This document shows positions 5,153 to 45,044 of a DNA stretch of 64,000 nucleotides, in pieces (the stretch's first letter is position 1; the number at the start of each line of letters is the position of its first letter). A model generated the notes under the pieces. The model was given only the letters and a program-made list of their open reading frames with translations, made no database searches and was not told the origin of the DNA. The stretch covers positions 532 through 64,531 of the forward strand of contig DATJUJ010000034.1 in assembly GCA_035502475.1 (NCBI GenBank), read 5' to 3'. Both the position numbers and the translations under genes were made by a program. Origin of the DNA: Thermoplasmata archaeon. GTDB taxonomy: Archaea; Thermoplasmatota; Thermoplasmata; Lutacidiplasmatales; UBA184.

Positions 5153-5247
5153 TTCGCCACCTGTCGAAGTCCGTGCCGCACCGTGGCAAGGTCGCGCTAC
5201 GCTCAAGTAGCCGGGGCCGGGTTCCCGGATGCCCCGAGGTGGGCTCG

Positions 5248-6510
5248 ATGCCGACCAGTGATTCCGTCATCAATCCGTTCGAGACCGCGCGCCAACAGAT
5301 CGATATCGTCGCCGACCTGCTCGGCCTGGACGTCGGCATGCGCGAGGTGCTGAAGCACCCGAAGCGCGAGCTGACCGTGAACTTCCCGGTCCGGATGGAC
5401 GACGGGTCGTACCGCGTCTTCACCGGCCACCGCGTCCAGTACAACATGGCCCGGGGCCCGACCAAGGGGGGCATCCGCTACCACCCGCAGGTCACGCTCG
5501 ACGAGGTGCGGGCGCTGGCCGCGTGGATGACGTGGAAGTGCGCCGTCGTCAACATCCCGTACGGCGGGGCGAAGGGCGGCGTCATCTGCGACCCCAAGCA
5601 CATGTCGAAGGGCGAGCTCGAGCGCCTCACCCGGCGCTACGCGAGCGAGATCGCGCCGATCATCGGCCCGGAGATGGACATCCCGGCGCCGGACGTCTAC
5701 ACCGACTCCCAGACCATGGCCTGGATCATGGACACGTACTCGATGCTGAAGGGGTACTCCGTGCCGGGCGTCGTGACCGGCAAGCCGATCAGCCTCGGCG
5801 GCAGCGAGGGCCGGGGCGAGGCGACCGGCCGCGGCTGCGCCTACGTCATCCGCGAGTCGGCGAAGGACGTCGGCCTCAAGATGAAGGGCGCGACCGTCGC
5901 CGTCCAGGGGTTCGGGAACGCCGGCAGCGTCGCCGCGAACCTCCTCTACGACGAGCAGGGCGCGAAGATCGTCGCCGTGTCCGACTCGAAGGGCGGGATC
6001 TTGAAGGCGGACGGATTGAACCCGCACGCGGTCGAGGCCCACAAGCAGAAGACCGGCTCGGTCGTCGGCTTCCCCGGCACGAAGGCGCTCAGCAACGAAG
6101 AGCTCCTCCAGACGAAGGTCGACGTCCTGATCCCCGCGGCGCTCGAGAACCAGATCACGCCCAAGAACGCCGACAAGATCCAGGCGAAGATCGTCGCGGA
6201 GGCCGCGAACGGACCCACGGTGCCGAAGGCGGACACGGTCCTGTTCGAGAAGGGGATCACGGTGCTCCCCGACGTGCTCGCGAACGCGGGCGGCGTGACG
6301 GTGAGCTACTTCGAGTGGGCCCAGGACATCCAGGGCTACTTCTGGGGCCTCGACGAGGTCAACTCGCGCCTCGAGCGGATCATGGTGAAGTCGTACGCCG
6401 ACGTCCACCAGGTCGCGACGGAGCGCAAGGTCCACAACCGGACGGCCGCGTACGTCCTCGCCATCCAGCGGGTCGTCGACGCCACGAAGATCCGCGGGAT
6501 CTACCCGTAG
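5248..6510 (+). CDS. gdhA: glutamate dehydrogenase
   Basis: Real C-terminal 420 aa of a 1521-aa shadow ORF. Motifs: GPTKGGIRYHP, KCAVVNIPYGGAKGG, VQGFGNAGS and ANAGGVTVSYFEW. A GAGGTG Shine-Dalgarno-like element lies 7 nt upstream of ATG 5248. Confidence 0.95.
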   Translation: MPTSDSVINPFETARQQIDIVADLLGLDVGMREVLKHPKRELTVNFPVRMDDGSYRVFTGHRVQYNMARGPTKGGIRYHPQVTLDEVRALAAWMTWKCAVVNIPYGGAKGGVICDPKHMSKGELERLTRRYASEIAPIIGPEMDIPAPDVYTDSQTMAWIMDTYSMLKGYSVPGVVTGKPISLGGSEGRGEATGRGCAYVIRESAKDVGLKMKGATVAVQGFGNAGSVAANLLYDEQGAKIVAVSDSKGGILKADGLNPHAVEAHKQKTGSVVGFPGTKALSNEELLQTKVDVLIPAALENQITPKNADKIQAKIVAEAANGPTVPKADTVLFEKGITVLPDVLANAGGVTVSYFEWAQDIQGYFWGLDEVNSRLERIMVKSYADVHQVATERKVHNRTAAYVLAIQRVVDATKIRGIYP

Positions 6511-6538
6511 GGTACCCCTTCCGGCGGCCCCGCTCCCG

Positions 6539-35259: not shown

Positions 35260-37125
35260 GTGGCGCGGTCGGTCGAGCGGCTGGAAGGGCTCGCCCTCGT
35301 GGGGCACGCCGCGATCGGTCCGCTCGCGATCGCGACGCCCGGGCTCCTCGAGAGCCGCCCGGCCGGCGGCTCCGCGCCGGGCCTCGCGCTCTCCGAACGC
35401 GCGGGGCCGCTCGGGACCCGACGGCTCGTGCTCTCGGACGGGCCCGCGGCGCTCGAGCTCGAGATGCCGGTCCTCGCCCCGGAGATCACGGGGACGGCGG
35501 GCGTCTATCTGCCGGTCGGGCCCGGGGCGTGCCTCGTGCGGCCGCCGATACCCCCCGAGGGGGTCGCCGCGGCCCGCGACTCCGGGCCCGAGCTCCTGGT
35601 GCTCGGCAACGCCCGCGCGCTCTGGGCCGACGGGGAGCCGTTCGTGCGCGCGATCGCGGACGTCCGCGAGCGGCTCGGGGGCCGACCGGTCCTCTGGGCG
35701 CCCCGGGTCGGGCTTCCGCACCGCCTTCCGCTGCTCGCCTACCTCGGGGTCGACCTCGCGGACACCACCGAGGGCCTCCTCGCGGCCGCCGACGGGACCT
35801 ACCTCGACGCGACCCTGGGGTCGTTGCCCGGCGCGATCGCCCGGTCGGAGCGGGCGTGCGCCTGCCCCGCGTGCGCGGGGGAGGGTTCGCTGGAGGACCA
35901 CGCGCTCGGGGCGTACCGGGCCGCGATGGCCGAGACCCGGGCCGCCGCCCGCGCGGGCCGCCTGCGCGAGCTCGTGGAGGCCCGGCTCACGGCCGAGCCC
36001 GTGCTCGCGGAGATGCTCCGCTACGCCGACCGGATCCTCGGGCCCCTCCTCGAGGAGCGGACCCCGGTCACGGGCGAAGGATCCCGGACGTACGTGCTCG
36101 CCGAGTCGTTCCGACGCCCGGAGATGGCCCGGTTCCGCGCGCGGCTGAGGGAGCGGTATCGACCGCCCCCCTCGAAGTCCGTCCTGCTGCTGGTCCCGTG
36201 CTCGAAGACCAAGCCGTACCGCCACTCGCGTTCCCACCGACGCTTCGCCTCCGCCCTCGAGGGGCTGCCCCGTCTCGAGCGCGTCCACGTCGTCTCGGTG
36301 AGCTCGCCGGTCGGCCTCGTGCCCCGCGAGCTCGAGGACGTGCCGCCGGCGCGCCACTACGACATCCCCGTCACGGGCGACTGGTCGGAGGCCGAGCGCT
36401 CGGCGGTCGGCGCCGGGCTCGAGCACCTGCTCGCGACCGGCGCCTACACGTCGGTCGTGCTGCACCTCGACCCGGACGAGTACGCCTTCCTGCGCGAAGT
36501 CGTCCCGGAGCGGTACGCGGCGCGCTGGACGATCCCCGACGGCCGGACCACGGCCCCGGCGGCGCTCGCCGCGCTGCGCGCCCACGTGGCGGAGGCCCTC
36601 GCGGACGGGCCGGGCGTCCCGGGGGGCCCGCTCGCCGTCGTCCGGGAGGAGCTGCGGGCGGTCGCGGCGTTCCAGTTCGGGGAGGCGGCGGCCGACCGGC
36701 TGTGCGCCGCCCCCTTCCGGCTCGCCGGGCGCCCCTGGTTCCAACGGCTCACCGACGGGGGTCGCGATCTCGCCACGCTGCGGGAGGAACGCGGCCTCTT
36801 CCACCTCACCGTCGCGGGCGCCCAACGGCTCGTCCCCGACCCCCCGCTCGCGGTCTCGGTGGACCCCCGGCTCCCCCTCACCGGGGACCTCTTCTGCCCG
36901 GGCGTCCGCGGCGCCGACCCCGGGATCCGGGCCGGGGACTCGGTCGTGCTGCTCCGGGACGGGACGCTCGCCGGCGTCGGGGAGGCGGCCCTGCCGGGAC
37001 GCCTCATGACCGAGCTCGCGCACGGGCTCGCGGTGCGCGTACGGCACCGGGCGGGGGCGCCCACCGACACGGCCTTGGGGGAGGAGTCTCCTCGGGCCGG
37101 CGAGGGGCCGGTCGTCCAGCGGTGA
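35260..37125 (+). CDS. arcS: archaeosine synthase ArcS (TgtA2-like) with C-terminal PUA domain
   Basis: 621 aa. TGT-like N-terminal region with CACPAC zinc motif, a central LLLVPCSKTKPY segment (DUF5591-type) and a C-terminal PUA-like LFCPGVRGADPGIRAGDSVVLL. The stop lies inside tRNA-Val. Confidence 0.8.
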   Translation: MARSVERLEGLALVGHAAIGPLAIATPGLLESRPAGGSAPGLALSERAGPLGTRRLVLSDGPAALELEMPVLAPEITGTAGVYLPVGPGACLVRPPIPPEGVAAARDSGPELLVLGNARALWADGEPFVRAIADVRERLGGRPVLWAPRVGLPHRLPLLAYLGVDLADTTEGLLAAADGTYLDATLGSLPGAIARSERACACPACAGEGSLEDHALGAYRAAMAETRAAARAGRLRELVEARLTAEPVLAEMLRYADRILGPLLEERTPVTGEGSRTYVLAESFRRPEMARFRARLRERYRPPPSKSVLLLVPCSKTKPYRHSRSHRRFASALEGLPRLERVHVVSVSSPVGLVPRELEDVPPARHYDIPVTGDWSEAERSAVGAGLEHLLATGAYTSVVLHLDPDEYAFLREVVPERYAARWTIPDGRTTAPAALAALRAHVAEALADGPGVPGGPLAVVREELRAVAAFQFGEAAADRLCAAPFRLAGRPWFQRLTDGGRDLATLREERGLFHLTVAGAQRLVPDPPLAVSVDPRLPLTGDLFCPGVRGADPGIRAGDSVVLLRDGTLAGVGEAALPGRLMTELAHGLAVRVRHRAGAPTDTALGEESPRAGEGPVVQR

Positions 37126-37177
37126 GGACACCGCGCTTACAACGCGGAGATCGACGGTTCGAATCCGTCCCGGCCCA
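37105..37177 (+). tRNA. tRNA-Val (anticodon TAC)
   Basis: Folded by hand. Acceptor stem GGGCCGG/CCGGCCC. D arm GTCC-AGCGGTGA-GGAC. Anticodon stem CCGCG/CGCGG with loop CTTACAA. T arm GACGG-TTCGAAT-CCGTC. Discriminator A. No CCA encoded. Confidence 0.9.
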
Positions 37178-37218
37178 CGCCCGCCCGGGCCGCCGGGCCG
37201 GCCGCGGGTTCGAGGGCG

Positions 37219-38048: not shown

Positions 38049-39017
38049 ATGACGACGCGACCCGACCGTTCCGCCCCCCGCCCGAGCGCGGGAGCCTCCC
38101 CGGGCCGCGGCCGGCGGGGCGCCTCCTCCCGGTCGGCCACCCCCGTCCTGGTCGCCACGATCGTGGTCGGGCGGGGCGAGCCCCCCGAGCATCTCTTTCG
38201 CCGACTCCTCGGCGTCTACCTCGGGGGCGCCCGGGAGTTCGTCGTGCGCGAGCGGCCCACCGTCCGTTCCGACACCCGCGAGGTGATCCGGTCGTTCTGC
38301 CGCCGGACCCGCCAGCCCGAGATCGTGTCGGAGGAGGGCGGGGTGGTCCGGCTGCGCGACATCGCGTTCGAGAACCGGGTGCCGCTGCCCCAGCGGATCG
38401 CGCGCATGGGTCGGCTCGTCGTCGACTTCCATCGCGAGGCGGTCGACAGCTGGGCCCGACTGCCGTTCGGCGAGGACTCGTTCTGGGAGCGGCGGGACGA
38501 CGAGATCGACCGGGAGGCCTGGTACATCCAGCGCCTCGCGGCGCTCGGGCCGGACGGCGACGGCGTCGCCCTCCTGGGCCCGTTCTCGATCGCCCGCAGC
38601 CTCGAGCGGATCGCCGACCATGCGGTCGCGCTGGGGGAGACCGGCCGCCGGCTCGTCGACCTCCCGCAGTCCGCGGGTCCGCTCACCTCCTTGAAGCAGT
38701 TCCACCGCCAGGCGATGGAGCACCTCGAGGGCGTGCTCGCGACGCCCGACGGGAACGTCGCCAACGAACTCCTCGACATGGGCGAGGCGCTCCTCGCGTC
38801 GGGCCGGGCGCTCGCGGACCGGCTCCTGCCGGCGGTCGAGGGCGGCACGATGCCCCCCGCGACGGCGGCGGCGATCGGTCGGATCCTCGAGTCGATCGGC
38901 CGGACCATCGCCTACGCCCAGGACATCGCGCAGGTCGTGCTCGACCGGTCGCTGCCGCTCGCGGCCCCCGAGCCCCGGGGGGCCGCCCGCTCCGTGGCCG
39001 CCCCGTTGGCGGCCTAG
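38049..39017 (+). CDS. PhoU-domain protein (phosphate-signalling regulator-like)
   Basis: Two PhoU-type helical repeats: IARSLERIADHAVALGE and ILESIGRTIAYAQDIAQ. The N-terminal about 45 aa are Arg/Ser/Pro-rich. ATG 38049 is chosen as about 25 nt downstream of the TATA; 38025 (GTG) and 38037 (ATG) are alternatives. Confidence 0.7.
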   Translation: MTTRPDRSAPRPSAGASPGRGRRGASSRSATPVLVATIVVGRGEPPEHLFRRLLGVYLGGAREFVVRERPTVRSDTREVIRSFCRRTRQPEIVSEEGGVVRLRDIAFENRVPLPQRIARMGRLVVDFHREAVDSWARLPFGEDSFWERRDDEIDREAWYIQRLAALGPDGDGVALLGPFSIARSLERIADHAVALGETGRRLVDLPQSAGPLTSLKQFHRQAMEHLEGVLATPDGNVANELLDMGEALLASGRALADRLLPAVEGGTMPPATAAAIGRILESIGRTIAYAQDIAQVVLDRSLPLAAPEPRGAARSVAAPLAA

Positions 39018-39080: not shown

Positions 39081-39608
39081 GTGCCGGAGAGCGGGGTGCG
39101 GCTGCGCGTGGTCCTCTTCCGCCACGGCCCCGCGGAGCTCCGGGACCCCGCGCGCTGGCCGCGGGACGAGCAGCGTCCGCTCTCCGCGAAGGGAATCGTC
39201 CAGACCCGCCGTGCGGCCCGCGGCCTCGTGCGCGCCGCGGGTCCGGTCGACCTGGTCGCGACGAGCGCCGCGGTCCGGGCCCGGATGACGACCGAGGCGC
39301 TCGCCGGCGCGCTGGGGACGCGCGTCGCGACCGAGGTCTGGGAGGAGCTCGCGGTGGGACGCCTCGCGGGGGCGATCCTCGAGCGGCTGCACGCCCTCCC
39401 GCGCGCCCGGCGGAGCGTCGTGCTCGTGGGGCACGAGCCGGCCCTCGCCGAGCTGGCGGGGCTCGCGCTCGTCGGCGACGGCGTACCGATCGTGAAGCTG
39501 GCGAAGGCGGGGGCGGTGCTGGTCGAGTTCCCGAGCGCGGTCGCCCCCGGGGCGGCGCGGCTCCGCTGGGCGCTCACGCGGAAGCAGCTGGTCGCCCTGC
39601 GGTCCTAG
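39081..39608 (+). CDS. sixA: phosphohistidine phosphatase SixA (histidine phosphatase superfamily)
   Basis: VVLFRHGPAE (RHG motif), LSAKG and VLVGHEP motifs; about 170 aa. GTG 39096 is an alternative start. The 3' end overlaps the convergent kinase-like gene by 35 nt. Confidence 0.75.
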   Translation: MPESGVRLRVVLFRHGPAELRDPARWPRDEQRPLSAKGIVQTRRAARGLVRAAGPVDLVATSAAVRARMTTEALAGALGTRVATEVWEELAVGRLAGAILERLHALPRARRSVVLVGHEPALAELAGLALVGDGVPIVKLAKAGAVLVEFPSAVAPGAARLRWALTRKQLVALRS

Positions 39609-40335
39609 GGCGCCCCGCCGGGGGCCGGGCCCCGGGGCGGGGGACCGGCTTCGCCCCGTAGAGCGGGGCCACCAGCGCGACCACGTCCTGGTGCACCTGG
39701 TCGGGAGCGCGGTTCGCGTCGACCCAGTGGAAGACGTACTCCGGGCGCATCCAATCGAACTCCTTCGAGAGCCGGTCCTGGTAGAGGAAGAAGCTCTCGA
39801 ACAAATCGCGCGAGAGCGAGAGGTCCATGCCGGATTCCCAGTAGTCGAGGCTGCCGTACTTCCCGATCGCCCGGTGCAGCAGGATCACGGGCCGGGCGTC
39901 GAGGAAGAGGACGAGGTCCGGGCGCAGCGCGAATCCGTAGAGCTCCCGGGCCCACGCCCGCGAGGCGCCGCGGACGATCGCCCGGGCCATCAGCGTGTAG
40001 ATGTACCGGTCGGCGAGCACCGTGGAGCCGGCGGCGAGCGCCGGCACGATCTTGTTCTCGAGCTGGTCTGCGAAGTCGACCGCGTAGAGGAGCGCCATCG
40101 TCGTGGCGCCGAGCGTGTGGCCCTGCTTCGCGCGGTCGATCTCGCCGCTGACGAGGTCGGAGCGGCGGAGGCCCGTGTCGACGACCGCGTGGCCCTCGAT
40201 CTCGAGCCACTCCTTCAGCATCGCGACCTCGGTCGAGCGACCGGAGCCGTCCGCCCCCTCCACGACGATGAGCCGTCCCGGGAGCGCCTCGGCGGAGAGG
40301 CCCGGAAGGCGCGTTCCGTAGTTCCTAGCCGTCAT
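39574..40335 (-). CDS. thymidylate-kinase-like P-loop protein B (Walker A Lys replaced by Arg)
   Basis: 253 aa. LIVVEGADGSGRST P-loop variant, LADRYIYT (DRY motif), and LDYWESGMDLSLSRDLFESF shared with paralog A. Pro/Arg-rich tail. The ATG overlaps the stop of paralog A by 11 nt. Confidence 0.8.
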   Translation of the reverse strand: MTARNYGTRLPGLSAEALPGRLIVVEGADGSGRSTEVAMLKEWLEIEGHAVVDTGLRRSDLVSGEIDRAKQGHTLGATTMALLYAVDFADQLENKIVPALAAGSTVLADRYIYTLMARAIVRGASRAWARELYGFALRPDLVLFLDARPVILLHRAIGKYGSLDYWESGMDLSLSRDLFESFFLYQDRLSKEFDWMRPEYVFHWVDANRAPDQVHQDVVALVAPLYGAKPVPRPGARPPAGRPRTAGRPAASA

Positions 40336-41026
40336 GCATGAGCCGCTCCCCCGTCGGGAATCCCGCGAGGAGGGGGCGCACCTCCGTCCGCAGGGCGCGC
40401 TGGATCGCTTCCACGTTCCGGGTCGCGTCGATCACGGTGAAGCCGTCCGTCCGCGCGAGCCGGTCGTACTCGTGCTTGAGGCGGGTCTGGAACCGCTCGT
40501 AGCTCTCCTGGAGGTCGTCGGAGAGCCCCAGGTCCATGCCGGCCTCGTAGTAGTTGATCTTGAGCCGCGAGGCGATCTTCCGCTTGAGGGAGACCGAGAC
40601 GGGCACCCGGAAGTAGAACACCCGGTCCGGCCGCGGGGCGAACGAGTAGATGTTCCGCACCCAGGCGGGTTCGCATCCGCGCGCGGCGTCCCGCACGAAC
40701 GCGGTGAACGCGTAGCGGTCGCAGACGACGACGTAGCCGGCGCGCAGCGGGGGGAGGATCTTCCGCTCGAAGCGATCGGCGAAGTCGGTGGCGTGGAGGA
40801 GGCTGAACGTGGTCGGGGTGAGCAGGTTCTTCTTCTTGCCGCGCCGGATCGTCTCGGCGGTCAGCTCCGACGAGTTCCACTCGGTGAAGAACACCCGGTA
40901 CCCCTGCGACTGGAGCCACTTGCCGATCAGGGCGGCCTGGGTCGACTTGCCGCTCCCGTCGAGCCCCTCGAAGACGAGGAGGCGGCCGGGGTAGCCGTGG
41001 CTCGGCAGCGGGCGCTCAGGGCTCAC
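40325..41026 (-). CDS. thymidylate-kinase-like P-loop protein A (canonical Walker A)
   Basis: 233 aa. LLVFEGLDGSGKST, VCDRYAFT and INYYEAGMDLGLSDDLQESY motifs. The dTMP-binding TREPGG-type motif is replaced by TEWNSS. The GTG start overlaps the ppx stop by 11 nt. Confidence 0.8.
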   Translation of the reverse strand: MSPERPLPSHGYPGRLLVFEGLDGSGKSTQAALIGKWLQSQGYRVFFTEWNSSELTAETIRRGKKKNLLTPTTFSLLHATDFADRFERKILPPLRAGYVVVCDRYAFTAFVRDAARGCEPAWVRNIYSFAPRPDRVFYFRVPVSVSLKRKIASRLKINYYEAGMDLGLSDDLQESYERFQTRLKHEYDRLARTDGFTVIDATRNVEAIQRALRTEVRPLLAGFPTGERLMHDG

Positions 41027-42572
41027 GGACCTTGAGCTCCAGGTCGAGGGCGCGTTCCATCGGCTTGCGGATCTTCTCCGGCCATCGGGGGGACAGGGCC
41101 GTATCCGCGAGCGCAGAAAAGGCCACGGTCAGGCCCCGCCCTCCGCCCCCCAGGGTGAAGCGCGGGTTCGCCGCGGCCGTGAGCTCCGCGAGCTCGAGCA
41201 GGACGCCGAGCCGCCGCGCCGCGTCCAGTTCGGCCGCCCCGATGATCGGCTGATAGCCGCGCTTCCAGTCGGACGGGAGATCGTCGCCCTCGTGCAGGTA
41301 GGCGATCATCGACGCGAGCAGGACCTCGCGCTGGTCGAGGCCCCAGATCGGATAGTTCCGGATGAGGTAGGCGGAATGGACCGCGTGCTGCCAGAGGTCG
41401 ATCGCGGTCCCCGCGTCGTGCATCCGGGCCGCGACCCCGAGGGCGAGCCGCTCGCTCGGCCCCCACTCGAAGCGACCGGCGAGGAGGTCGAACAGCGCGA
41501 GCGCCGTCTCGGCGACCTCGAGGCCGTGGTCGGCCCGGAACGAGAACGACTCGGCCGCCGCCGCGGTCGACCGCTCCGCGAGCTCGGCGCTGGACGCCGG
41601 CAGCTTCGCGCCGATCGCCTCGAGCGCGATCCCCTCGCGGATGCCGGTGCCGGAGACGACGATCCGCTCCGCCGAGGTGGCCCGGAGGAGCTCCTCCAGC
41701 ACGACGATCCCCGCGAGCACCACGTCCGCGCGGTCCCCGCCGATCCCGGGGATCGCGCGGCGCTTCTCGGCCGACATCTCGCCGAGCAGCTCGGCGAGCG
41801 CCTCGATCTCGCTCGCGTAGAGCGGATAGCCGTGGACGCGGCCGATCGGGTACTGGCGCATCTCGATCGCGGCCCGGGCCAGCGAGCGCACGGTGCCGCC
41901 GATCCCGTGGAGCCGGTACGCGGTGCGCCCGAACGCCTCGAGGACCGAGGCGAGCGTCTCCCGCACGTGGTCCCGGAGCGCCTCCAGTTCCCGGTGCTTC
42001 GGCGGGTCATGCTCCAGGAACCGCTGGGTCAGCCGGAGGACCCCCAGCGGGAGGCTCACGGAGTTGCGTTCGCGGCCCGCACGGACGTCGATCATCTGCA
42101 TCGACCCGCCGCCGAGATCGAAGACGAGGTCGTTCTCGAGCGCCCAGGCCCCGGCGACGCCGAGGTACCCGTAGTGCGCCTCCTCCCCTCCCGAGAGCAC
42201 GCGCAAGAGGACGCCCGTCTGGCGCTCGACGCGGCGCACGTAGTCGGGCCCGTTCGGCGCGTCGCGGACCGCGCTGGTCGCGACCGCGAGCGTGCGCGGG
42301 AGGCCGAGGTCGCGCACGATCCGGGCGAACCGGCGGACGGTCTGGACGCCGCGGTCGATCGCGTCGTCCGCGAGCCGCCCGTCGTCGCCGGTGCCGCTGC
42401 CGAGCCGGGGGACATCCTTCGCCTCGAAGAACGCCCGCACCGTGCCGGCCCGGGTCGTCTCGAACGCGACGAACCGCGCGGTGTTGGACCCCATGTCGAT
42501 GACGCCGAGCGTGGCGGCCGGCCGCGCGCGGGAGCGTTCGCGGTCGGTCTCGGCGAGCCGGCTGCGGTCCAC
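41016..42572 (-). CDS. ppx: exopolyphosphatase / guanosine pentaphosphate phosphohydrolase (Ppx/GppA) with C-terminal HD-like domain
   Basis: LGVIDMGSNTARFVAFE and DLGGGSMQ motifs (ASKHA fold). The C-terminal region has HDAG, consistent with an HD-type domain. GTG start at 42572. Confidence 0.9.
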   Translation of the reverse strand: MDRSRLAETDRERSRARPAATLGVIDMGSNTARFVAFETTRAGTVRAFFEAKDVPRLGSGTGDDGRLADDAIDRGVQTVRRFARIVRDLGLPRTLAVATSAVRDAPNGPDYVRRVERQTGVLLRVLSGGEEAHYGYLGVAGAWALENDLVFDLGGGSMQMIDVRAGRERNSVSLPLGVLRLTQRFLEHDPPKHRELEALRDHVRETLASVLEAFGRTAYRLHGIGGTVRSLARAAIEMRQYPIGRVHGYPLYASEIEALAELLGEMSAEKRRAIPGIGGDRADVVLAGIVVLEELLRATSAERIVVSGTGIREGIALEAIGAKLPASSAELAERSTAAAAESFSFRADHGLEVAETALALFDLLAGRFEWGPSERLALGVAARMHDAGTAIDLWQHAVHSAYLIRNYPIWGLDQREVLLASMIAYLHEGDDLPSDWKRGYQPIIGAAELDAARRLGVLLELAELTAAANPRFTLGGGGRGLTVAFSALADTALSPRWPEKIRKPMERALDLELKVREP

Positions 42573-42592
42573 GCGGGGTCAGTCCGTTCGCC

Positions 42593-42602
42593 CTCTAATA
42601 GG
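42593..42602. promoter_or_regulatory. putative bidirectional TATA element (CTCTAATAGG) between ppx and the CHAD gene
   Basis: Only AT island in the 109-nt divergent spacer. Centred 25 nt upstream of ppx GTG 42572. Confidence 0.45.
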
Positions 42603-42681
42603 GCTGGGGTCGCCGAGCCGAACGGCTTACTACGACGGGCCGCTTGGGGTCCCCGTGCCCCCCGACCGGGACGTCCGACCG

Positions 42682-43548
42682 ATGGCGCCGGCCGTCCTCG
42701 TGGACGAGCTCGACCGGATCCTCGCGGCCGTCGTCGGGGCCGCGCAGGCGGTCATCGACCGCCCGCATCCGACGGCGGGCAGCCTCCACCGGCTGCACCG
42801 CGAGCTGCGCCGGCTGCGGACCGCCCTCGGCGTGTGGGAGGCGCTCCTCGCGCGCCCGGACCGCGCGCGCCTTGCCCCGCTCGATCAGCGCCTGAAGCGC
42901 CTCGCGCGCCTCGTCGGCCGGATCCGGGACCGGGACGTCTCGATCGATCTCCTGGCGCAGGTCGACGGCGCGCGCTGGCCCCCGGACGAGGCGGTCCGGC
43001 TCGCCGGGTACCGGACCCGGCTCCGCGACGATGCGCGGACGGGGCGGGAGCTATTGCGGGCGTTCCTGCGCGCGGAGCAGGAGGCGGGGCTGTTCTCCGC
43101 GGTGCGCGCCGAGTGGAGACGCCCGGGCGTGCGGTACCGATCGCGCGACGTCCGGTCCGTCCTCTCCGAGGCGAAGGGGCAGGGCGAGGCGCGCGTCCGC
43201 AAGGCGCACCGTTCGGCGCGACGCAAGCCGAGCGTGGGCCGCCTGCATCGGCTGCGGATCCGCGTGCGGGGACTCCGTCACATCACCGACCTCCTGGACG
43301 CGGTCGATCCGGAGGATGCGCGTCCGCTCTCCGCGCCGGTCCGCCGGCTGCAGCGGGACCTCGGTCGCCTCCACGACCTCGACATCACGCTGGACGGGCT
43401 CGCGGCGCCCCTCCGGGAGACCGCGTGGGCCGAGGCCCTGCGCGGGGAGCGGTCGCGTCTGCGCGGCACCCTGCTGCTCGAGCTCGAGCAGAAGCCGTCG
43501 CCGCTGTTCGCCACCCGCCGGCCGCGGACGCGGAGGGCGGCTCCGTGA
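42682..43548 (+). CDS. CHAD domain-containing protein
   Basis: Repeated helical HRLRxxxxxLR motifs (LHRLHRELRRLRTAL, LHRLRIRVRGLRHITDL) and LQRDLGRLHDLDI fit the CHAD pattern. GTG 42655 is an alternative start. Confidence 0.75.
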   Translation: MAPAVLVDELDRILAAVVGAAQAVIDRPHPTAGSLHRLHRELRRLRTALGVWEALLARPDRARLAPLDQRLKRLARLVGRIRDRDVSIDLLAQVDGARWPPDEAVRLAGYRTRLRDDARTGRELLRAFLRAEQEAGLFSAVRAEWRRPGVRYRSRDVRSVLSEAKGQGEARVRKAHRSARRKPSVGRLHRLRIRVRGLRHITDLLDAVDPEDARPLSAPVRRLQRDLGRLHDLDITLDGLAAPLRETAWAEALRGERSRLRGTLLLELEQKPSPLFATRRPRTRRAAP

Positions 43549-45044
43549 CCGCGCTCGCGGCGGACCCCCTCTGCGAGGCGCTCGGGGAGTCGGGGGGACT
43601 CGGCGCGACCGTCCGACAACTGGCCTCCCGGCTCGAGACGAGCCCCGACCGGGTCGCGGAGGCGCTCGACCGCCTGCACGCGCGCGGCGACGTCCTGCGG
43701 ATCGGGCGGGGGCTCTGGGTCCTGCGGGCGTTCGAACGGCTGGACGGCCGGGAAGATTTTGTGGACCCGGCCGAGTTCTCCGAGCGGTTCCTCGCGGAGC
43801 ACGGGATCGCCCTCGGCCGGTACACCGGGCCGATCACGTTCCGGGCGAACGACGCGCTTCCGATCCACCGCTGGTGGCCCTACGTCCAGGGGTACTCGGC
43901 CGAGTTCGTCCGCGCCGTGGTCGAGGCCGCGGCGCTGCCGCGCGGGGCGACCGTGCTCGACCCGTTCGCCGGGAGCGGCACGACGCTCGTCGAGGCCCGG
44001 CGGGCCGGCGCGCGGGCCTGGGGCGCCGAGCTCCTGCGCCCCGCGGTCCTCGCGGCCCGGGTGAAGACCGAGTTCGAGCTCGACCCGGTCGAACTTGGCC
44101 GCTCGGCGGACCGCCTCGTCGCCCGCGCCCGGCGGCGCGCCCCCGGTCGCCTGCCGTTCCTGCGCGAGACCCGACGCCAGTTCACCCCGCGCGCGCTCGC
44201 CTCGCTCACCTGCCTCCGCGACGCATTGCCTCCCGAGGGCACGCCGGTCGCTGACGCGCTCCGTCTCGCCTTCGGGAAAATCCTGATCCCCTCGAGCCGG
44301 CTCCACCGCTCCCCCTGCCTCGGCTACGACCGGCGGCCGCCGACCGACGGACCGGATCCGTACGATCGGTTCGCGGAGGCGATCGCGACCATGACCGGCG
44401 ACCTGGGCCGGGTCGCGGAGGAGCGGGCCCGGTGGGGCCCCACCGCCCGGGTCGTCGCCGGCGACGCCCGGAGCGTCCCGTGGCCCCGGGGCTCGGTCGC
44501 CCTCGCCGTGACGAGTCCGCCGTACGTGAACGGGATGGACTACGTGATGAACTACAAGCTCGACCTCGCCTGGCTCGGCTACGCCGCCTCGTACGCCGAC
44601 CTTGCGGCGCTGCGGAGCGCGGAGGTCGCGTGCGACAACCTCCCCCGGTCCGAGACGGCGCCCTACGTGGAGGCGGCCCGGCCTCCGGACCCCTGGCTCC
44701 CGGCGATCCTGGCCCGGATCCGGCAGAACGTCACGCGCAAGGGCACGTACCGGCGCGCCGACATGCACGCGGTCGTGCACCGGTACTTCGCGGACCTCGT
44801 GCCGGTGATGCGCTCGGTCTACCGGGCCCTCCAGCCCGGCGGGCGGTTCGTCCTGGTCGTTGGCGACTCGCTGCTCGCGGGCACGTACGTTCCCGGGGAC
44901 CTCCTGCTCGCCCGGGTCGGTGCGTCGGTCGGCTTCTCGATCCGGTCGGTCGAGGTCGCGCGGAGCCGACGCAGCGGGCAGCGCCGCTCCTTCGAGCTCC
45001 GCGAATCGGTCGTCACGCTCGAGCGTCCGCACCGGGCCGGCTGA
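43545..45044 (+). CDS. putative N4/N6 DNA methyltransferase with N-terminal winged helix; motif I precedes motif IV
   Basis: 499 aa. wHTH-like LASRLETSPDRVAEALDRLHARGDVLRIGRGLWVL. SAM motif VLDPFAGSGTTLVEA. About 170 aa later comes the catalytic LAVTSPPYVNGMDY, then YRALQPGGRFVLVVGDS. The GTG start overlaps the CHAD stop (GTGA). Confidence 0.75.
   Translation: MTALAADPLCEALGESGGLGATVRQLASRLETSPDRVAEALDRLHARGDVLRIGRGLWVLRAFERLDGREDFVDPAEFSERFLAEHGIALGRYTGPITFRANDALPIHRWWPYVQGYSAEFVRAVVEAAALPRGATVLDPFAGSGTTLVEARRAGARAWGAELLRPAVLAARVKTEFELDPVELGRSADRLVARARRRAPGRLPFLRETRRQFTPRALASLTCLRDALPPEGTPVADALRLAFGKILIPSSRLHRSPCLGYDRRPPTDGPDPYDRFAEAIATMTGDLGRVAEERARWGPTARVVAGDARSVPWPRGSVALAVTSPPYVNGMDYVMNYKLDLAWLGYAASYADLAALRSAEVACDNLPRSETAPYVEAARPPDPWLPAILARIRQNVTRKGTYRRADMHAVVHRYFADLVPVMRSVYRALQPGGRFVLVVGDSLLAGTYVPGDLLLARVGASVGFSIRSVEVARSRRSGQRRSFELRESVVTLERPHRAG

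Follow-up and report, generated by a model that had tools for sequence, protein, structure and literature searches.

A probable polyphosphate-turnover gene cluster with a predicted PPK3-type kinase pair in a soil Thermoplasmata archaeon

What is the role of two overlapping genes with the look of thymidylate kinases that directly follow an exopolyphosphatase gene in a soil archaeon? The genes lie in a stretch of 64,000 nucleotides (nt), called here the window, of contig DATJUJ010000034.1 (assembly GCA_035502475.1) from a Thermoplasmata archaeon, and their products are designated proteins A and B. A preliminary description of this DNA had proposed that A and B formed a heteromeric polyphosphate (polyP) kinase or a polyP-dependent nucleotide kinase rather than a dTMP kinase, and had pointed to a report of a comparable Tmk-like pair in Sulfolobus acidocaldarius. 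That report is the study of Hofmann et al. (J Biol Chem 2026), who characterised Saci_2019 (cPPK3) and Saci_2020 (rPPK3) as an α2β2 polyphosphate kinase (PMC12995831). Homology to this characterised enzyme is the basis of the function assignment made here, and the tree, the held-out profile models and the gene order described below support the earlier proposal. Judged by these comparisons, the locus is most probably a polyP-turnover cluster built around PPK3, with a complex of the A2B2 type. It is a further case of the PPK3 system published in 2026 and not a new system. The novelty implied by the preliminary description was thus lost, the family having already been presented, along with the PPX, SixA and CHAD genes that neighbour it in both bacteria and archaea, and with a distribution that was called narrow (PMC12995831).

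Operon structure and family membership of the kinase pair

The three central genes are read from the minus strand. The first gene of what can be called the ppx-c-r operon is ppx (41016..42572), which codes for an exopolyphosphatase (PPX) of the long form (518 amino acids, aa). The gene of protein A (40325..41026; 233 aa), the predicted catalytic subunit of the cPPK3 type, comes second and overlaps the ppx stop, and the gene of protein B (39574..40335; 253 aa), the predicted partner subunit of the rPPK3 type, comes third and overlaps the A stop. Genes called independently on the source contig correspond to identical open reading frames (ORFs), in agreement with the coordinates and strand initially proposed, and the two 11-nt start/stop overlaps already noticed at that stage can be read directly at the junctions, which are GTGAGCCCTGA for the A start and ppx stop and ATGACGGCTAG for the B start and A stop. 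A GGAG-like element is located about 10 nt 5' of each of the two internal starts. The overlap from c to r measures 8 or 11 nt, with GGAG upstream, in 18 of 23 Thermoplasmata loci, a count that excludes a few loci whose start codons were mis-assigned by the script (negative values). Such recurrence, together with the upstream GGAG, supports coupled translation of A and B, which by analogy would be fitting for an enzyme like that of S. acidocaldarius (SaPPK3), whose activity is maximal when its subunits are present at 1:1.

Protein A matches the Pfam family Thymidylate_kin (PF02223) at 1e-29. When compared with proteins of known structure using phmmer, it aligned over its full length with ST1543 of Sulfurisphaera tokodaii (PDB 2plr/5h70; E = 3e-57), the canonical dTMP kinases of the PDB comparison being found at 1e-18 or weaker. 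The alignments agree with the motif reading of the preliminary description: A keeps the Walker A sequence GSGKS, the DRY motif and the lid, and its TEWNSS segment aligns with the TREPGG of canonical dTMP kinase (Thermus Tmk). This dTMP-binding segment is in fact replaced in both proteins, by TEWNSS in A and by DTGLRRS in B. The residues of the ATP/ADP site (P-loop, DRY, R112, R116 and the lid arginine) are conserved, and A carries every one of the c-specific conserved basic residues (K36, R44, R61, K65, K66, R85, R95, R140 and R154), these basic-cleft positions being defined at the sequence level as those with lysine or arginine in at least 85% of the c-type proteins. By its match to ST1543, its TEWNSS motif, its Walker A lysine and these basic residues, A is a clear cPPK3 ortholog; its identity to the Sulfolobales c subunits is 46-52%. 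It also scores 105.3 bits against the TIGR00041 "dTMP kinase" equivalog, above the cut-off of 83.25, which explains the database name dTMP kinase. NCBI and JGI list both proteins as dTMP or thymidylate kinases, apparently as part of a misannotation that affects PPK3 subunits systematically.

Protein B is 40% identical to A and belongs to the same Pfam family (PF02223, 3e-17). It aligns over its full length with ST1543 at E = 5.6e-33, and the lid motif Y-[YW]-E-[AS]-G-M-D-L, an extra segment that had been pointed out from the beginning, is indeed common to A and B. In an AlphaFold2 model of B with a predicted local distance difference test score (pLDDT) of 80.6, the best PDB matches were the ST1543 structures (TM 0.85-0.90), with the canonical Tmks at 0.74-0.81. 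The assignment of the two proteins to different subunit types comes from hidden Markov models (HMMs) of the c and r subunits that were built without any Thermoplasmata sequence. Protein A scored 338 bits with the c-HMM versus 240 with the r-HMM, while the opposite was observed for protein B, with 300 bits for the r-HMM versus 202 for the c-HMM. In a neighbour-joining tree (100 bootstraps, canonical Tmk outgroup), the PPK3 clade was separated from the canonical dTMP kinases in 100/100 replicates; A was placed in the c branch (bootstrap 89), B in the r branch (bootstrap 86). The Thermoplasmata sequences were monophyletic within both clades (100 each), as expected for a pair that would have been acquired once and then co-evolved.

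The distribution of the pair was surveyed in several ways. A pattern scan of species genomes retrieved about 23 Thermoplasmata species represented by metagenome-assembled genomes (MAGs), with 70-91% identity to A, followed by bacteria of many phyla and Nitrososphaeraceae (54-59%), Sulfolobaceae-type archaea (47-48%) and canonical Tmk-like proteins (about 30%). The cluster is also present on many soil and peat metagenome contigs. In every PPK3-like locus (L005-L056) an A-like gene is directly followed by a B-like gene, usually with ppx and sixA adjacent, and archaea and bacteria alike show this conserved linkage of the c-r pair to ppx and sixA. An exhaustive search of 1.84 billion representative proteins yielded 358 clusters with E <= 1e-30, a number that rose to 2259 with E <= 1e-10. 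Among the best matches, five proteins (P0241, P0242, P0254, P0302 and P0353) are gene fusions, which include a c-r fusion of 460 aa with two kinase domains in one chain, chains of 680-696 aa with two kinase domains and a C-terminal PPX domain III/HD, and a kinase joined to an inorganic pyrophosphatase (InPase) domain. These fusions constitute Rosetta-stone support for a role in polyP or pyrophosphate (phosphoanhydride) metabolism.

Two other groups of proteins came to light in this survey. Four matches of about 1200-1280 aa (P0285, P0287, P0323 and P0360) combine an MFS domain, a PPK3-like kinase 44-47% identical to A and a DUF2252/APH-like domain; the idea that the matches of about 1200 aa were PPX-c-r fusions was discarded on the basis of this Pfam composition (MFS, kinase and DUF2252). 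In addition, two loci, one from Gracilibacteria (L057) and the other from Altarchaeum (L058), hold divergent adjacent PPK3-like pairs with the Walker A lysine in both copies and a long lid insertion in one copy. These pairs may correspond to an earlier form of the c/r pair, or to an alternative one.

Promoter region, flanking genes and host

The sequence upstream of ppx had been described as containing a single AT island. Two AT-rich boxes can be read there instead: a TATA-like box, TATTAG (42600..42595, minus strand), which lies 22 nt before the ppx GTG, and a second box, TTACTA (42627..42632, plus strand), which faces the CHAD gene. Of the 17 Thermoplasmata loci that were aligned, which are related to one another, 14 have an AT-rich hexamer 21-24 nt 5' of the ppx start, the remaining intergenic sequence being poorly conserved. 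Such a distance agrees with an archaeal TATA box from which a leaderless mRNA is made, and we infer that TATTAG is the promoter of a leaderless ppx-c-r transcript. The TTACTA box is located 22 nt before an in-frame GTG at 42655 and is partly conserved in the alignment as a gtaag/gaaag box, making this GTG a possible alternative leaderless start of the CHAD gene.

The product of ppx matches Pfam Ppx-GppA (4.6e-57) and also Ppx-GppA_III, that is, domain III (3e-12); against the TIGR03706 exopolyphosphatase model it scores 275 bits, under the cut-off of 307. The CHAD-domain gene (42682..43548, plus strand) is divergent from ppx. Its location on the opposite strand and its domain (Pfam CHAD, 2.4e-19) were correctly recognised in the preliminary description, and all four proteins on which the latter was centred do match the Pfam families proposed for them. 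The CHAD start needs correction, since the most likely one is the ATG at 42682 (288 aa, source-contig gene call) and not the long-ORF start at 42292. CHAD adjoins ppx in most Thermoplasmata loci. Four nt before the CHAD stop starts a gene for an N6/N4 DNA-methyltransferase-like protein of 499 aa (43545..45044, plus strand), whose synteny with CHAD extends to at least 12 Thermoplasmata loci, although it is located elsewhere in L024; the CHAD-methyltransferase linkage may be one of plain synteny rather than function.

On the other side of the operon, two genes that were missed when the locus was first taken as a four-gene module lie beside B. The first (39096..39608, plus strand), convergent with B, codes for a SixA-like phosphohistidine phosphatase of 170-175 aa, with a Pfam His_Phos_1 match (4.9e-9), RHG and GHEP motifs visible in the translation, and a score of 70.9 bits against TIGR00249 sixA, slightly below the cut-off of 74.5. 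The 3' ends of B and of the SixA-like gene overlap by 35 nt (39574..39608), the overlap being 32-41 nt in most Thermoplasmata loci, and the C-terminal tail of B encoded in this overlap is predicted to be disordered (pLDDT < 50). The position of sixA is conserved in the Thermoplasmata loci, and SixA is also adjacent in those of Sulfolobales and of Bacteroidota/Ignavibacteriota. The second gene (38049..39017, plus strand), upstream of sixA, codes for a PhoU-domain protein of 322-330 aa (Pfam PhoU, 1.7e-6; TIGR02135 phoU_full, weak at 1e-4). It is syntenic in at least 15 Thermoplasmata loci, and PhoU has zero mentions as a PPK3 neighbour in PMC12995831. The PhoU-like protein is considered a candidate phosphate-responsive regulator of the cluster.

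The host had been taken for a distant, GC-rich archaeon, which is consistent with the G+C content of the window (70-77%), with the affiliation of Thermoplasmata to the phylum Thermoplasmatota, and with the archaeal genes that the window contains, namely those for archaeosine synthase, an HTH_10 regulator, ribosomal protein S24e, Alba, RNA polymerase subunit L and a TFS-like zinc ribbon. A protein 100% identical to A is assigned by NCBI to a Thermoplasmata archaeon MAG. Judging from the sources of the MAGs, the host is a mesophilic archaeon of soil or peat and not a thermoacidophile. In keeping with the initial reading, neither PPK1 nor PPK2 was detected with Pfam among the called genes of the 64-kb window, and the same applies to a third Tmk-like gene. 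The PPK3 paper gives as a genome criterion a separate canonical tmk together with, usually, neither PPK1 nor PPK2; none of the three was found within the 64 kb, the extent of the search. Elsewhere in the window, long ORFs without a Pfam match occupy both strands at about 5153..6538, and a tRNA-Val(TAC) (37105..37178, plus strand) begins 21 nt before the stop of an ArcS-like archaeosine synthase ORF of the same strand (35260..37125, plus strand).

Protein B, alternative readings and the proposed mode of action

In SaPPK3, cPPK3 is the active subunit, whereas rPPK3 is inactive alone and activates cPPK3 at a 1:1 ratio, its inactivity having been ascribed to a replaced DRX arginine (PMC12995831). 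The comparison of sequences across the family suggests that this replacement is not what defines the subunit type. In B, the Walker A lysine is changed to arginine (GSGRS) while DRY and the lid are kept. The Walker A arginine is present in all 48 r-type proteins and the lysine in all 50 c-type proteins; DRY is retained by 45 of the 48 r-type proteins, with DGY appearing only in three Sulfolobales-type r subunits. Being confined to these three in the sample, the loss of the DRX arginine is a Sulfolobales trait and not a family trait, and the family-wide hallmark of r subunits is, at the level of sequence, the change of the Walker A lysine to arginine. A substitution of this kind in P-loop kinases usually abolishes phosphotransfer. 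Moreover, B has no basic residue at any of the nine c-specific basic positions, where it presents E, A, D, Q, G, Q, A, D and Y, respectively. Taken together, its Walker A arginine and its lack of the basic cleft would lead one to expect an inactive B.

Several points weigh against an A2B2-type PPK3 with an inactive B. The loss of the DRX arginine seen in rPPK3 is absent from B, which has DRY, and B keeps 41 of the 61 c-invariant residues versus 24-29 in the Sulfolobales-type r subunits, which also lack D23, R112 and the lid E/G residues. With DRY and so many c-invariant residues in place, the designation of inactive regulatory subunit transfers less safely to B. With HMMs built from Sulfolobales only, the margin for B becomes thin (134.5 bits for r versus 125.9 for c), and the tree was obtained by neighbour joining and not by maximum likelihood. 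The 17 loci behind the count of AT-rich hexamers are not independent of each other, meaning that the corresponding P value overstates their independence. Finally, PPK1 is carried by some Thermoplasmatales (PMC6864096), and the search for it here covered 64 kb only. Taken by its sequence, B is clearly an r-type paralog, yet a far less degenerate one than the rPPK3 that was studied biochemically.

The degree of conservation of B leads to an alternative that retains the same PPK3 complex but not the dead scaffold: B would have a working nucleotide/phosphate site in Thermoplasmata and in most bacterial PPK3s, acting as an allosteric sensor of energy charge or as a second catalytic site, for example in the polyP-dependent conversion of AMP to ADP. 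The P-loop aspartate, DRY, R118, R122, the lid R155 and the E-x-G-x-D lid motif, all kept in B as part of its 41 c-invariant residues, speak for such a site, as does the fact that the only type tested biochemically, the Sulfolobales r subunit, keeps merely 24-29 of the 61; r subunits also have conserved residues of their own (R58, Y84 and Y185), suggesting selection on a ligand site. We nevertheless regard this alternative as improbable, given the arginine in the Walker A motif of 48/48 r-type proteins, the absence from B of the c-type basic polyP cleft, and the only available biochemistry, in which rPPK3 is inactive (PMC12995831). A wider version of the idea, likewise improbable, would see the r subunit of Thermoplasmata and of most bacterial PPK3s as a module that binds a ligand or provides a second catalytic site, its DRX clamp and lid being intact and its Walker A motif carrying arginine; the inactive r of Sulfolobus would be a derived special case, and the cluster with its conserved PhoU-like and SixA-like genes a phosphate/energy-sensing polyP switch peculiar to these abundant soil archaea.

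It is very unlikely that the pair, while belonging to the PPK3 family, works with another direction or substrate, that is, as the main polyP synthase or with GDP or AMP as acceptor instead of as an ADP-specific emergency generator of ATP. In favour of such a shift are the mesophilic life of the host in soil or peat, the identity of only 46-52% between A and the Sulfolobales c subunits, and the added PhoU-like gene and long PPX, which suggest control of phosphate storage. Against it, the ADP-binding and cleft residues are conserved in all c-type proteins, and the equilibrium ATP/ADP ratio of about 3-4 is a thermodynamic property common to PPK1 and PPK2 (PMC12995831). That A and B are dTMP or broad-specificity (d)NMP kinases merely located beside ppx is hardly tenable: their Thymidylate_kin matches, the score of A with TIGR00041 and the NCBI/JGI names would agree with it, but it is opposed by the bootstrap separation from canonical dTMP kinases, by the replacement of the dTMP-binding segment in both proteins, by the linkage to ppx and sixA across phyla and the fusions to PPX domain III and pyrophosphatase, and by the biochemistry of S. 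acidocaldarius, where dTMP kinase activity is absent from Saci_2019 and Saci_2020 and present in a third paralog, Saci_0893 (PMC12995831).

In the preferred reading, a PPK3 complex of the A2B2 type at the centre of a polyP-turnover cluster, the system could operate as follows. The ppx, A and B genes would be transcribed as one, probably leaderless, mRNA from the TATA-like box 22 nt 5' of the ppx start, and the three proteins would be made by coupled translation. Protein A would bind ATP/ADP at its P-loop and polyP in the basic cleft. Protein B, a paralog that carries the Walker A arginine and lacks the basic cleft, would oligomerise with A, probably as A2B2, and raise its activity. The complex would then transfer phosphate reversibly between polyP and ADP. 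At a low ATP/ADP ratio it would generate ATP from polyP, and only at a high ratio would it make polyP. PPX would hydrolyse polyP to inorganic phosphate and the CHAD protein would bind polyP granules. SixA and the PhoU-like protein would probably link this turnover with the signalling of phosphate and energy status.

Significance and comparison with known systems

What the locus adds to the published family is modestly new: Thermoplasmata as a third archaeal lineage, with its abundance in soil metagenomes, a long PPX, a syntenic PhoU-like gene, the Walker A lysine-to-arginine change as the family-wide mark of r subunits, and the systematic naming of the subunits as dTMP kinases. Thermoplasmata are not mentioned in PMC12995831 or in its preprint, and no paper that pairs PPK3 with this group was found in the literature collection searched. 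PPK3 is now placed in Thermoplasmatota, which makes a second archaeal phylum, and considering the approximately 23 species-level Thermoplasmata genomes and the soil and peat contigs, it may be the polyP enzyme that a common group of soil archaea normally uses. The definition of the family also becomes sharper, with the Walker A change marking all r subunits and the loss of the DRX arginine being specific to Sulfolobales. In addition, since PPK3 subunits are named dTMP kinases and the c subunit scores above the NCBIfam cut-off, surveys of polyP metabolism that seek only PPK1 and PPK2 will miss the hosts of PPK3 and wrongly score such organisms as lacking a polyP kinase.

The closest known system is SaPPK3 itself, a reversible enzyme with a strong preference for producing ATP out of polyP and ADP that makes polyP only at high ATP/ADP (PMC12995831). 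Both systems have adjacent, overlapping paralogs of the dTMPK fold in the order ppx, c, r; a c subunit with the Walker A lysine, TEWNSS and the basic cleft; an r subunit with the Walker A arginine and without the cleft; and the same five families, SixA, PPX, c, r and CHAD. The S. acidocaldarius operon is sixA-ppx-cPPK3-rPPK3-CHAD (PMC12995831), and in the Metallosphaera locus SixA, PPX (420 aa, no domain III), c, r and a CHAD-like gene likewise follow one another on one strand. The module of the window cannot be seen, therefore, as one extended by CHAD, as had been suggested, given that CHAD and SixA are already part of the Sulfolobus operon. The differences lie in the host, which belongs to Thermoplasmatota and not to Thermoproteota; in the orientation of CHAD and SixA, which are divergent and convergent, respectively, in the window and co-oriented in S. 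acidocaldarius; in the PPX, with 518 aa and domain III versus about 420 aa and no domain III in Sulfolobales; in the syntenic PhoU-like gene; and in B, which unlike the r subunit of SaPPK3 keeps DRY and many more residues of the catalytic type.

In structural terms, the representative of cPPK3 is ST1543 (STK_15430) of S. tokodaii, a "dTMP kinase" with PDB entries 2plr, 4nzy, 4rzx and 5h70. Protein A shares with it the P-loop and the TEWNSS, KKK-LLTP, HATDF-DR-ER, DRY and EAG-D motifs, the lid segment being KINYYEAGMDLGLS in A versus KIKPQEAGADIFPG in ST1543, and differs from it by an N-terminal extension of 15 residues and a C-terminal extension.

The description of the locus as unrelated to PPK1 and PPK2 proved only partly right. 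PPK3 is a family separate from PPK2, and neither A nor B has a PPK2 Pfam match, but PPK3 and PPK2 are both P-loop kinases (PMC12995831). As in the analogy drawn in that paper with the two-domain class II PPK2 (PA3455 of P. aeruginosa), an active P-loop module is combined with an inactive, paralogous, oligomerising module, and polyP-dependent nucleotide phosphorylation is favoured. The two modules are nonetheless fused in one chain in PPK2, where the site for the nucleotide and that for polyP have changed places compared with PPK3 (PMC12995831). Finally, A and B share with canonical Tmk, exemplified by the T. thermophilus (5x7j) and A. aeolicus (2pbr) enzymes, the fold, the P-loop, DRY, the lid layout and membership in PF02223. 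They depart from it by an identity of only about 25-30%, by the replaced TREPGG, by their position in a separate clade (100% bootstrap), and by forming a heteromeric pair linked to ppx.

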